A DNA stretch of 36,377 nt from a virus (taxonomy: Duplodnaviria > Heunggongvirae > Uroviricota > Caudoviricetes). A program made the position numbers and the translations under genes. The DNA is taken from the IMG/VR virus record IMGVR_UViG_2917398303_000003. One strand, given 5' to 3'. Shown here piece after piece: positions 13,593 to 26,301 of the stretch. Each line of letters starts with the position of its first letter. The stretch's first letter is position 1. The notes beneath the pieces were generated by a model. That model was not told where the DNA came from. It saw nothing but the letters and a program-made list of their open reading frames with translations, and did not search any database.

Positions 13593-13610
13593 TGTGTGGT
13601 AGTCGGTACA
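13593..13610. promoter_or_regulatory. TGT-N12-ACA dyad (Ogr/B-type late-promoter activator site) in the P/O divergent intergenic region
   Basis: tgtgtggtagtcggtaca. Dyad centre is ~87 nt upstream of the O start codon. P2 late promoters carry such a dyad near -55. Confidence 0.45.
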
Positions 13611-13688
13611 AATACCGCGCATTGTTTCACTGCCCCCATCACCGCAACCATAAGGCTCCAGTAAGTTTTTTCTAACGGAGCACGGCTC

Positions 13689-14522
13689 ATGACAGTGAAA
13701 GCAAAGCGTTTTCGCATCGGGGTGGAAGGTGCCACCACCGACGGACGCGAAATCCAGCGTGAATGGCTGGAACAGATGGCAGCCAGCTACAACCCGGCGG
13801 TGTACACCGCGCTGATTAACCTTGAGCACATCAAGTCTTATCTGCCGGACAGCACCTTTAACCGCTACGGCAAGGTGACGGCGCTGTTTGCTGAAGAAAT
13901 CACGGAAGGCCCGCTGGCGGGCAAGATGGCACTGTATGCCGACGTTGAGCCAACGGAGTCCCTGGTGGAACTGGTGAAAAAAGGCCAGAAATTATTCACC
14001 TCTATGGAAGTCAGCCCGAAGTTTGCTGATACGGGCAAAGCCTACCTGGTCGGCCTGGCTGCCACTGATGACCCTGCCAGTCTGGGCACTGAAATGCTGA
14101 CATTCAGCGCCAGTGCGGCCCATAACCCGCTGGCAAACCGCAAGCAGAATCCTGCCAATCTCTTTACCGCTGCAGAGGAAACGGTGATCGAACTGGAAGA
14201 AATCCAGGAGGACAAACCGTCCCTGTTTGCCCGTGTCACGGCGCTGTTCACCAAAAAAGAGCAGTCCGATGACGCCCGATTCTCTGATGTGCATAAGGCC
14301 GTGGAGCTGGTCGCCACTGAGCAGCAGAACCTGAGCGCACGCACCGAAAAATCCCTGTCTGAGCAGGAAGAACGCCTGTCTGAGCTGGAGATTGCTCTGC
14401 AGGCACAGCAGACCGCCTTTAACGAACTGGTGGACAAGCTGAGCCATGAAGACAGCCGCCAGGACTACCGCCAGCGTGCAACAGGCGGTAACGCCCCCGC
14501 TGACACTCTGACCAATTGCTGA
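13689..14522 (+). CDS. O: Capsid scaffolding protein (P2 gpO homolog)
   Basis: ORF track (277 aa). GGAG RBS. First gene of the rightward head operon. Acidic coiled-coil-like C-terminal half. Confidence 0.85.
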   Translation: MTVKAKRFRIGVEGATTDGREIQREWLEQMAASYNPAVYTALINLEHIKSYLPDSTFNRYGKVTALFAEEITEGPLAGKMALYADVEPTESLVELVKKGQKLFTSMEVSPKFADTGKAYLVGLAATDDPASLGTEMLTFSASAAHNPLANRKQNPANLFTAAEETVIELEEIQEDKPSLFARVTALFTKKEQSDDARFSDVHKAVELVATEQQNLSARTEKSLSEQEERLSELEIALQAQQTAFNELVDKLSHEDSRQDYRQRATGGNAPADTLTNC

Positions 14523-14538
14523 TGGAGCACAAAACCTG

Positions 14539-15597
14539 ATGAAGAAGAATACCCGCTTTGCTTTTAACGCTTACCTGCAGCAGCTGGCGCGTCTGAACGG
14601 TGTGGCAGTTGAAGAACTGTCCAGCAAGTTCACCGTGGAGCCGTCTGTACAGCAGACGCTGGAAGACCAGATCCAGCAGTCCGCCGCTTTCCTGACGCTG
14701 ATTAACGTCACGCCAGTGACTGAGCAGTCCGGTCAGCTGCTGGGGTTGGGTGTTGGTAGCACCATTGCCGGAACCACTGACACCACCGCGAAAGAGCGTG
14801 AACCTGTCGATCCTACGCTGATGGTCGATGTGGAATACAAATGCGAGCAGACCAACTTTGACACGGTACTGACCTACGCGAAGCTGGACCTGTGGGCGAA
14901 GTTTCAGGATTTCCAGGTGCGTATCCGTGACGCCATCGTGAAACGTCAGGCACTGGACCGCATCATGATCGGCTTTAACGGCGTGAAGCGTGCGAAAACC
15001 TCCAACCGTAGCGAAAACCCGCTGCTGCAGGATGTGAACAAAGGCTGGTTGCAGAAAATCCGTGAGGATGCACCGGATCACGTCATGGGCAGCACCACCA
15101 CGGGCGGTGAAACCACACCGGGTGCGGTGAAAGTCGGGAAAGGGGGCGAATATGCCAACTTGGACGCCGTAGTGATGGATGCCGTCAGTGAGCTTATCGA
15201 CGTTGTCTACCAGGACGATGACGATCTGGTGGTGATTTGCGGGCGTGAACTGCTGTCTGACAAGTATTTCCCGCTGGTCAACAAAGAGCAGGAAAACAGT
15301 GAAAAACTGGCTGCCGATATGATCATCAGTCAGAAACGCATGGGTGGCCTGCAGGCGGTGCGTGCGCCTTTCTTCCCGCCGAATGCGCTGCTGATCACCC
15401 GTCTGGATAACCTGTCCATCTACTGGCAGGAAGATACCCGCCGCCGTTCAGTTATCGACAACCCGAAACGTGACCGGATTGAAAATTTTGAATCCGTTAA
15501 CGAAGCCTACGTGGTTGAGGACTACCGCTGCGCCGCACTGGTGGAAAACATCCAGATTGGCGACTTCAGCGCCGCCGCAGCAGAAGCCGGAGCGTAA
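14539..15597 (+). CDS. N: Major capsid protein (P2 gpN homolog)
   Basis: ORF track (352 aa). Position and size as in P2. Confidence 0.9.
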   Translation: MKKNTRFAFNAYLQQLARLNGVAVEELSSKFTVEPSVQQTLEDQIQQSAAFLTLINVTPVTEQSGQLLGLGVGSTIAGTTDTTAKEREPVDPTLMVDVEYKCEQTNFDTVLTYAKLDLWAKFQDFQVRIRDAIVKRQALDRIMIGFNGVKRAKTSNRSENPLLQDVNKGWLQKIREDAPDHVMGSTTTGGETTPGAVKVGKGGEYANLDAVVMDAVSELIDVVYQDDDDLVVICGRELLSDKYFPLVNKEQENSEKLAADMIISQKRMGGLQAVRAPFFPPNALLITRLDNLSIYWQEDTRRRSVIDNPKRDRIENFESVNEAYVVEDYRCAALVENIQIGDFSAAAAEAGA

Positions 15598-15600
15598 CCC

Positions 15601-24715: not shown

Positions 24716-24717
24716 TT

Positions 24718-24906
24718 TTACTCACTGACTAACCAGAACCCCGTTTCTTCAAGCATTTCCTGGACAGTACTGCTTATCTGTTCATTCTCATGCTTGTGGA
24801 CGTTGGTGTTGAGCACTGATTGTCTCCCTGACATCAGTATCGGGAAAAACCAACGAGCCAACTCGCTTAACTCGTCCGGAGGGAAGTAGTTGATATAGAC
24901 AAGCAT
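24718..24906 (-). CDS. Small hypothetical ORF (62 aa) downstream of the acyltransferase; possibly a gene remnant
   Basis: ORF track only. Starts 13 nt after the acyltransferase stop on the same strand. No recognisable motif. Confidence 0.3.
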   Translation of the reverse strand: MLVYINYFPPDELSELARWFFPILMSGRQSVLNTNVHKHENEQISSTVQEMLEETGFWLVSE

Positions 24907-24919
24907 ATATTCATATTTT

Positions 24920-26053
24920 TTAAATTTTATGCAATCCGGCTGATGATTTATTATTTATTTTTTTGATGAACGGTAATTCTATAAAATGATAAGTGAAAGT
25001 AGATAACAGGCAAATGCCAAAGAAGGTCATAACAAGTATCGAAAGTAATAAGGGGCCAGTAGTCATCATTTTTGCGGATTTCAGATAGTTATAGACTGGG
25101 AAAAGTACTAATCCCTGTGTGAGATACAAACTGTAGCTAATCGCGCCTAATCTTTTGGCTGCTTTGGTTGTTAGTGCGCCAAAGAGTTCGGCTCCAGATA
25201 TGATGCAAAAGAAAATAACAGCAAGGAAAGCAGTCTCCGGTGGGCTATATAATGTAGGGGCTGACAGAAAGGTTAGCAGTATGGCAGCTATCAAAATATA
25301 ATTTGCATTAGTCTTGGACAGGATAATTCTTTCTTTCAACTCCCTGCAGAGCATCCCCGCAAAAAAATATGACCAAAGATATGCAGTATTCGTAAAGGAC
25401 GGCAATAAATAAAACGAAAATGCAAAAAGAATAATAGTCAGTTCCATTGGTTTTTTATTGAGAATAAATAGCAATGGAAGAGAAAAATAAAACATCCACT
25501 CCCATTTCAATGTCCACGTAACTCCGGCTAACACAATGAATGGAGTCTGAAAAGTCGTTACTGGTGGTTTATTATCCCACAAGCTACCATCAAACCAGGA
25601 CAGTATATTGGATATAGTGGTTAAAGTTAATGTGGTTTTTTCCGTGAAAATGAAAAGTATAGAAATACCCATGAATGAACAAAAGAAAGCTAATGGGGCA
25701 ATTCTAAGGAATCTTTTTTGATATAGGGTTACCCAATCAATATTTTTCTTGTCCCTAATTTTCCCCCAAAATAAGTAGGCTGTTGTCATGAAGAATAATG
25801 CCACACCATATTTTCCCATAGTTAAAAGCCACTGGGATATTGGGGTCCATTCCCCGGTTGTAAAATATGAATAGGAGCAATCCATATGATGAAGTATTAC
25901 GAATGATGCAAGATAAAAACGCATTCCATCAAGACCGTTAGCACGATTTTGCTGAATGTCATCATCTAAAAATTTAAATATCGGTAAGCCGAAGGCGACT
26001 AATGCACCAATTATACAGAAAAATGCTAAAATAAATGAAAATGGTAGATTCAT
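24920..26053 (-). CDS. Acyltransferase-3 family integral membrane protein (Oac/OafA-like O-antigen acetyltransferase candidate); lysogenic-conversion cargo at the Z/fun position
   Basis: ORF track (377 aa). Roughly ten hydrophobic segments throughout, resembling Oac-type O-acetyltransferases. Opposite strand to the tail genes. Strongly AT-rich by eye. Confidence 0.75.
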   Translation of the reverse strand: MNLPFSFILAFFCIIGALVAFGLPIFKFLDDDIQQNRANGLDGMRFYLASFVILHHMDCSYSYFTTGEWTPISQWLLTMGKYGVALFFMTTAYLFWGKIRDKKNIDWVTLYQKRFLRIAPLAFFCSFMGISILFIFTEKTTLTLTTISNILSWFDGSLWDNKPPVTTFQTPFIVLAGVTWTLKWEWMFYFSLPLLFILNKKPMELTIILFAFSFYLLPSFTNTAYLWSYFFAGMLCRELKERIILSKTNANYILIAAILLTFLSAPTLYSPPETAFLAVIFFCIISGAELFGALTTKAAKRLGAISYSLYLTQGLVLFPVYNYLKSAKMMTTGPLLLSILVMTFFGICLLSTFTYHFIELPFIKKINNKSSAGLHKI

Positions 26054-26283
26054 ATAAGTAATGCTCTTCTTTTTTATGTTAAAGATAACCAGTTATTATC
26101 ATAAATGTGCACGGAATTACTCTAGAATATCAGAATGTAACTCCATAGCAAGCAACCGCGCTTTGTCATACAACTAAGGCGACATTGAATCTCGTTTATG
26201 GATGTTTTTTTTCCAATTATATTAACCCAGCCTTTCAACGAAGTTAAATGCACTGCTAACCATCGCTTTTCATAAATCTCAGT

Positions 26284-26301
26284 TGTGCCATTTTCCATAC
26301 A
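26284..26301. promoter_or_regulatory. TGT-N12-ACA dyad (Ogr-box type) of the FI late promoter
   Basis: tgtgccattttccataca. Centre is ~84 nt upstream of the FI ATG, the same spacing as the O dyad. Left half is identical to the V dyad. Confidence 0.5.

Follow-up and report, generated by a model that had tools for sequence, protein, structure and literature searches.

Activator dyads of four predicted late promoters in a P2-family prophage, with probable leaderless messages for genes P and V

Introduction

Proteins of the Ogr family bind a dyad at about -55 and activate sigma-70 RNA polymerase via the C-terminal domain of its alpha subunit, as in the phages P2 and 186 and in P4. Here, three dyads of the form TGT-N12-ACA, located upstream of the late operons in IMG/VR virus record IMGVR_UViG_2917398303_000003 (36,377 nt, the whole of which is referred to as the window), were analysed and compared with those of described phages and related prophages. 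The late promoters of P2, namely pP, pO, pV and pF, are reportedly activated by Ogr (the work of Christie and Calendar, 1983 and 1985), and this activation is said to need the C-terminal domain of the polymerase alpha subunit (rpoA109, L290H; ascribed to Sunshine and Sauer, 1975, and Wood et al., 1997). In 186 the late promoters p12, pV, p32 and pJ are activated by the B protein and have a geometry like that in the window. In P4 the late promoters Psid and PLL are reportedly activated by delta at TGT-N12-ACA elements at about -55, with a second delta site at the sid promoter (as Julien and Calendar are said to have described in 1995). The P4 delta protein belongs to the same activator family (PF04606, Ogr/Delta) as the activator encoded in the window; P4, however, is a satellite whose activator is a tandem duplication; the window involves no satellite.

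The P2 record (NC_001895) has a single annotated ‘activator binding site; pO, pP promoters’ at 3057-3087, and the starts of the P operon (3016) and the O operon (3127) both lie 55.5 nt from the centre of TGTGTCAGTGATAAGCCA. The activator site of P2 pV is at 10239-10266 and the V operon start, 10308, is the first base of the V coding sequence (CDS). For P2 pF the activator site is at 17555-17583, the starts are at 17626-17628, in agreement with the hexamer-to-start geometry, and the FI ATG is at 17652. The 186 record (NC_001317) has one B-protein site for ‘activation of pV and p12 promoters’ (3798-3817) and another for pJ (14091-14110); a pV-specific upstream site is annotated in the P2 record only, not in that of 186. 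In these two phages the annotated or mapped starts are about 55-58.5 nt from the site centres.

Enterobacteria rarely have natural leaderless genes; the natural leaderless mRNAs of Escherichia coli mobile elements include those of lambda cI, P2 gene V and Tn1721 tetR. One article names P2 among the few known E. coli cases, citing Christie & Calendar 1985, and describes leaderless translation as inefficient in E. coli (PMC4633059). The genome paper of another P2-like phage calls late promoters with the same consensus as here (PMC3931495).

Based on the open reading frame (ORF) map, Pfam matches and megablast, the window is a complete P2-family prophage. It has close relatives in the Elveevirus group (Peduoviridae): over the late region it is 96-97% identical to Escherichia phage Cartapus and, likewise, to Klebsiella phages such as KP12 and 4LV2017. 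As in P2, there are four late operons (P-Q, O..S, V..G and FI..D) and three upstream dyads, one of which is common to the divergent P and O promoters.

Results and discussion

Position and sequence of the dyads

All three dyads are perfect matches to TGT-N12-ACA (Table 1) at the places where they had been reported in the original prediction, which assigned them to Ogr/B-type late promoters; the P2 and 186 records have annotated activator sites at the homologous places, including a single site that serves the O and P promoters on opposite strands. Comparison with pO, pV and pF of P2 showed that, unlike the perfect dyads of the window, the described sites are imperfect. The pP/pO (3063-3080) and pF (17561-17578) sites of P2 and the p12/pV (3800-3817) and pJ (14093-14110) sites of 186 are TGT-N12-CCA, and that of P2 pV (10243-10259) is TGT-N11-ACA. 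A strict TGT-N12-ACA search would miss every late promoter of P2 and 186.

The background count of TGT-N12-ACA, which had been put forward as a check, is nine matches in the window against 9.0±3.0 in dinucleotide-preserving shuffles. The original argument that three perfect dyads are unlikely by chance therefore does not hold for the raw count, and raw enrichment was dropped as evidence and replaced by positional and extended-consensus tests, in both of which the argument does hold. As the raw count equals the expectation, the dyad signal rests on position and extended sequence. The late intergenic regions (13547-13688, 19981-20087 and 26054-26376) jointly comprise 572 nt and contain three of the nine matches, compared with 0.14 expected (Poisson P=4.3e-4).

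For the extended sequence, a symmetric 26-nt matrix was made from 127 sites at the expected positions in relatives with a P, V or FI protein less than 95% identical to that of the window, and was conditioned on perfect TGT/ACA cores. The relatives were the best 80 of 400 genome loci found with the P protein, with 10-kb flanks, and 80 viral loci found with FI. The matrix consensus is T-TGT-G-(C/T)-(C/G)-A-T...ACA-A. The V and FI dyads do share an extended half-site, TGTGCCAT, which on this comparison is simply the family consensus. In a scan of the window the four best matches begin at 20025, 26284, 13593 and 13535, in that order (scores in Table 1), followed by a match at 11.4; for the five dyads elsewhere the scores range from -4.2 to 7.7. 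In block-shuffled windows the mean number of matches scoring at least 15.8, the fourth-best score, was 0.035.

A consensus pattern scan revealed no sigma-70 -35/-10 promoter at the P/O, V and FI promoter positions, and a pattern scan revealed no convincing terminator at any of the three sites. The absence of an ordinary promoter or terminator fits activator-dependent promoters.

Table 1 Features of the late promoters in the window and associated genes
Feature	Position	Strand	Dyad centre	Sequence	Matrix score	Remarks
Activator dyad shared by divergent pP (minus) and pO (plus)	13593..13610		13601.5	TGTGTGGTAGTCGGTACA	18.7	candidate site
pV activator dyad	20025..20042		20033.5	TGTGCCATCCATCATACA	23.3	candidate site; best score in window
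pF activator dyad	26284..26301		26292.5	TGTGCCATTTTCCATACA	21.3	candidate site
Fourth dyad, over P ATG	13535..13552			TGTGCCATGAACACCACA	15.8	perfect dyad (sequence as on minus strand); centre 2.5 nt inside P CDS
pP -10 hexamer	13553..13558	minus		TAGGTT		followed by TGTGCC, then P ATG
Predicted pP start	13546	minus				first base of P ATG; 55.5 nt from dyad centre, as the P2 pP start
pV -10-like hexamer	20076..20081	plus		TAACAT		6 nt before V ATG
Predicted pV start	20088	plus				first base of V ATG; homologous to P2 start; no Shine-Dalgarno
pO -10-like hexamer	13646..13651	plus		AACCAT		predicted start ~13657-13658
O Shine-Dalgarno	13677-13680	plus		GGAG		O ATG at 13689
pF -10-like hexamer	26336..26341	plus		GAACAT		GAAAAT in P2; predicted start ~26348
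FI Shine-Dalgarno	26363-26366	plus		GGAG		FI ATG at 26377
P gene	11780-13546	minus				terminase large subunit
V gene	20088-20666	plus				baseplate spike
ogr homologue	33304-33522	plus				72-aa C4 zinc-finger late activator (PF04606); presumed dyad binder

Spacing of dyads, hexamers and start codons

The distance from the dyad centre to the A of the ATG is 87.5 nt for O, 84.5 nt for FI, 54.5 nt for V and, on the minus strand, 55.5 nt for P, as in the earlier estimates of ~85 nt for O and FI and ~54 nt for V and P. Each promoter has a -10-like hexamer without a -35, as in P2, and the four hexamers predict starts 54.5-56.5 nt from the dyad centres, similar to the ~55 bp from dyad centre to start in P2. 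The dyad-to-ATG spacing is constant for P and V and free for O and FI. At P identities of 74-100%, almost every relative has a perfect dyad exactly 55.5 nt from the P ATG, while in the same relatives the distance from the dyad to the O ATG ranges from 81.5 to 127.5 nt; perfect dyads were found 78.5-85.5 nt from the FI ATG.

At pO, AAACAT or AACCAT is present at a fixed distance from the dyad in all of the relatives, which predicts a pO start ~56 nt from the centre, and a conserved TTGTTTCA block lies further upstream than the hexamer. At pF, CAGAACATAGG is conserved in the relatives. A Shine-Dalgarno precedes O in 66/78 relatives and FI in 71/72.

In a separate view of the upstream conservation at pO, a conserved block, (C)GTTGTTTCA (13620-13631 in the window), precedes the predicted start by ~29-40 nt in almost every relative. 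This block is outside the dyad and may act as a weak -35-like element (TTGTTT, with 18 nt to the -10) or provide an extra contact.

At P and V the -10 hexamer occupies the place where a Shine-Dalgarno would be expected, and the two elements are mutually exclusive before the ATG. In the 54 unique relatives compared at P, TAnnnT is present at -12..-7 in 53 and C at -1 in 53, no Shine-Dalgarno-like 4-mer was found at -15..-4 (0/54) and the start codon is always ATG (54/54). The pattern at V is similar: xAnnnT is found at -12..-7 in 42 of the 46 unique relatives that share this spacing, V begins with ATG in all 46, and no Shine-Dalgarno-like 4-mer was seen at -15..-4 (0/46).

Messages of V and P

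The V mRNA of P2 starts at its ATG and the same is predicted for V of the window. As the P2 start is on the A of the ATG, a dyad-to-ATG distance of ~55 nt means a leaderless mRNA and not another promoter geometry. Leaderless V mRNA is already known from P2. Upstream of V, 38 of the 56 perfect or CCA-variant dyads detected are at 55.5 nt from the ATG, and others are at 54.5 nt (n=2, including the window), 56.5 nt (n=7) and 57.5 nt (n=3). Between the window and Cartapus the spacing is kept although ~45 nt in between are unrelated (V itself is 98% identical). In the prophages of Scandinavium lactucae and Tatumella saanichensis the V dyad is at 68.5 nt, and in exactly these two relatives the 13 additional nt include a Shine-Dalgarno, GAGG or AAGG. 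Judged from their sequences, these are natural leadered variants of an otherwise leaderless V, and provide a natural control. A different V start codon was ruled out, as a stop lies four codons ahead of the ATG and the alignment with the V proteins of P2 and 186 begins at residue 1-3.

The window (19981-20087) and Cartapus (9786-9880 of its locus) have V promoters that differ throughout, in the dyad core sequence, the spacer and the -10 alike, with the geometry kept within 1 nt. The V promoter seems to have been exchanged along with the adjacent variable cargo gene.

The P2 sequence TAGCCT-TGCCGT-G, in which the G is the mapped start, is followed by a 23-nt P leader with a GGCGAGG Shine-Dalgarno and then by the ATG, whereas in the window the sequence is TAGGTT-TGTGCC-ATG and the P ATG sits at the P2 start position. 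The P homologue of 186, orf12, also has a 23-nt leader, unlike the window. Five further named phages were compared at this locus. Klebsiella phage Kp4852-2 has, like P2 and 186, 23 extra nt with GGCGAGG; the mapped start (P2 and 186) aligns with the ATG of the leaderless-type relatives. Leaderless-type P starts were found in Yersinia phage vB_YenM_56.17 (TAGCCT-AATGGC-ATG) and Ralstonia phage RSA1 (TAGCGT-TGCGGC-ATG), while Pseudomonas BR319a and Mannheimia PHL101 are organised differently. Another start codon for P was also ruled out: an in-frame stop precedes the ATG by three codons, no start codon intervenes, and the alignment with the P proteins of P2 and 186 begins at residue 1-3 (MNTTLTPADLDPRRQA vs MTITTDTTLLHDPRRQA). 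In predicted folds of both the P and V mRNAs the 5′ AUG is unpaired.

By homology, P would be translated from a leaderless mRNA in this lineage, as V. The proposal made originally for V and P, of either a different start or a very short leader, is upheld only in its second part: the -55 geometry appears to be kept and the predicted leader length is zero. As in lambda cI, P2 V and Tn1721 tetR, the predicted start is on the A of the ATG with the -10 hexamer in the Shine-Dalgarno place; unlike in those three, we infer the leaderless state of terminase P from comparison. No published leaderless P (terminase large subunit) gene was found in the searchable literature, and for P2 gene V as a leaderless case the search yielded just an indirect citation.

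These comparisons suggest, with somewhat better than even confidence on our part, that the P mRNA is leaderless in a large part of the P2 family and that P2 and 186 are the exception, with a 23-nt insertion giving a Shine-Dalgarno. Such a distribution would span the Elveevirus-type prophages of Klebsiella, Escherichia, Citrobacter, Pantoea and Xenorhabdus, Yersinia phage 56.17 and, apparently, Ralstonia phage RSA1, and in it a single dyad would serve two divergent starts, the P ATG being one of them, at a distance of exactly 55.5 bp from each. A leaderless terminase message would be common in this sample and absent from P2 and 186, which is only a mildly new point.

The start of P has two further features. 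Codon 4 of P is ACA in 35/40 relatives with Thr there, and both P and V begin with CA-rich codons (ATGAACACCACAC... and ATGAACGCACAA..., respectively), which may reflect selection on a leaderless 5′ end, like downstream CA-rich enhancers. In the vB_YenM_56.17 record (NC_070915) a 31-aa hypothetical CDS (locus 409-504) is annotated across the pP promoter, abutting the P ATG; this call is probably spurious because the geometry of dyad, -10 and ATG is conserved.

Proposed mechanism

After induction, the 72-aa zinc-finger activator would bind each TGT-N12-ACA dyad ~55 bp upstream of the start and bring the host's sigma-70 RNA polymerase to promoters with a -10-like hexamer and no usable -35. The dyad at 13593-13610, midway between back-to-back promoters, would fire both pO (to the right) and pP (to the left), with the pO message starting at ~13657 and having a 31-32-nt leader with GGAG. 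The dyad at 20025-20042 would drive the V-W-J-I-H-G operon and that at 26284-26301 the FI-FII-E-T-U-D(-ogr) operon. At pV and pP the usual geometry would place the start codon at the transcription start, so that the 5′-terminal AUG would be the initiation codon of V or P; with the start codon where transcription begins, these mRNAs are most likely leaderless. Leaderless initiation would, through inefficient translation, keep the low-copy spike V and the terminase P at a low level.

Alternative explanations

We regard it as very probable that the three dyads are operator-like sites of four Ogr-dependent late promoters, and that the pP and pV messages are most likely leaderless. Several points weigh against this. 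The bare dyad occurs at chance frequency in the window, and the matrix, given its conditioning on perfect cores at the expected positions, tests the extended consensus and not the core. All start positions are predictions based on the -10 hexamers and on comparison with P2 and 186; the pV spacing in the window is 54.5 nt and not the modal 55.5 nt; and inefficient leaderless translation of an essential terminase would need compensation or tolerance. A rival explanation is that the dyads are real and P and V are nevertheless leadered, through another start spacing, a second upstream promoter or read-through, and are translated without a Shine-Dalgarno by S1 or A/U-rich enhancement. The starts in this lineage are indeed predicted ones, the region upstream of V in the window is A/T-rich, and in 186 the S and V homologues are just 70 nt apart, so that read-through is conceivable there. 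In the window, by contrast, a convergent gene on the minus strand (19165-19980) parts S from V, and upstream of P there is only the divergent O promoter. The P2 record has the V start at the A of the ATG, and leadered messages would not account for a hexamer exactly at -12..-7 in nearly all relatives with no Shine-Dalgarno in any of them, for P and V starts that are always ATG and never GTG or TTG, or for a dyad spacing that is invariant for P and V and free for O and FI. Leadered P and V messages are therefore considered unlikely.

That the three dyads are chance matches of a short degenerate motif, or small hairpins or terminators, and have no regulatory role would agree with the raw count and, for the hairpins, with a weak 5-bp stem that overlaps 13604-13617. 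The dyad arms, however, are only 3-5 bp with no T-tract, and terminators, like parts of ordinary sigma-70 promoters, were rejected as neither pattern scan gave anything convincing. A chance origin is countered by the positional enrichment, by extended scores far above those of the five dyads elsewhere, by conservation at a fixed distance across dozens of divergent prophages and by the annotated homologous sites of P2 and 186; the comparative data effectively refute it, and we give an absence of regulatory role next to no credence. The dyads belong to a known kind of regulatory element, and the P2-family phage that carries them here is an uncharacterised one.

A fourth dyad over the P start codon

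The original prediction listed three dyads and overlooked a fourth perfect one, at 13535-13552, which lies over the P ATG (Table 1). This could be a second functional Ogr site on the pP start that damps transcription of the terminase and portal genes as the activator accumulates; the second delta site said to be present at the P4 sid promoter (Julien and Calendar, 1995) would be a comparable case. The dyad is perfect, has a perfect consensus half-site TTGTGCCAT on the P strand and a score that exceeds almost all shuffles, and most relatives whose P is at least 92% identical have a version with 0-1 mismatches, including the ...CCA form of the genuine P2 and 186 sites. It is absent, however, from most relatives with less than 91% P identity, and its two halves vary independently: among the 54 unique relatives, 11 have both TGT (-6..-4) and ACA (codon 4), 24 have ACA only, 6 have TGT only and 13 have neither, an odds ratio of ~1. 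CC-ATG is also fixed for other reasons, as shown by the C at -1 in 53/54, and the codon-4 ACA is conserved in clades without the TGT. A functional second site was rejected as the leading reading since the halves are not co-conserved, and we think it distinctly improbable; on the comparative evidence the fourth dyad is probably a fortuitous by-product and not a site.

The activator gene

The window encodes, after D as in P2, a 72-aa C4 zinc-finger protein with a CX2CX22CX4C motif and a match to PF04606 (Ogr_Delta; E=6.9e-22). The protein shares 51% identity with P2 Ogr, 54% with 186 B and 61% with Cartapus Ogr, and by homology with these proteins would be expected to bind the dyads.

The identity to the Cartapus ogr product (22568-22786 of its locus) is just 61% compared with 97-99% for the structural genes. 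The activator gene is mosaic, yet the window and Cartapus both have perfect TGT-N12-ACA sites. A near-dyad, TTGCGTCATTCTCGCTACAA (TGC-N12-ACA), is located at 33015-33032, inside the 3′ part of gene D and ~270 nt upstream of ogr; this is the fifth-ranking matrix match (11.4) and is not over the shuffle maxima.

Implications

These assignments place four late promoters and their activator in an uncharacterised and clinically common group of Klebsiella and E. coli prophages, and indicate that exchange of the flanking cargo genes leaves the P2 regulatory layout intact. If the reading of P is true, enterobacterial phages would have in P a second natural leaderless gene that is widely conserved, and P2/186 (23-nt leader) and their relatives (leaderless) would form a natural leadered/leaderless pair behind one promoter. 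A conserved pair of this kind would be a handy natural system for the study of leaderless translation and of how low-copy virion proteins are kept scarce.

Gene order and cargo islands

The gene order in the window is int ... A ... Q-P (minus strand), O..S, V..G, FI..D and ogr. The late genes were identified by Pfam matches, which among the window proteins include terminase, GPO scaffold, Phage_base_V and tail sheath, and by synteny with P2, 186 and Cartapus. This prophage group has a 186-like early region (CI, Apl/Cox and CII). Q overlaps the P stop (11780-11783), and its translation is probably coupled to that of P.

Three low-GC (32-44%) cargo islands are present in the window, at 7861-10638, 19165-19980 and 24920-26053, and their positions correspond to the P2 old/tin, orf30 and Z/fun loci, respectively. 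PADLOC revealed no significant defence system in the low-GC cargo genes beside the promoters, the lone marginal match being mad8 (E=4e-4) in a 523-aa ORF; the island that contains this ORF (7861-10638) also has ORFs of 120 and 139 aa. The island at 19165-19980, the convergent gene between S and V, consists of a 271-aa ORF without a Pfam or PADLOC match. The island at 24920-26053 encodes a 377-aa Acyl_transf_3 protein, which is likely to be an O-antigen acetyltransferase.

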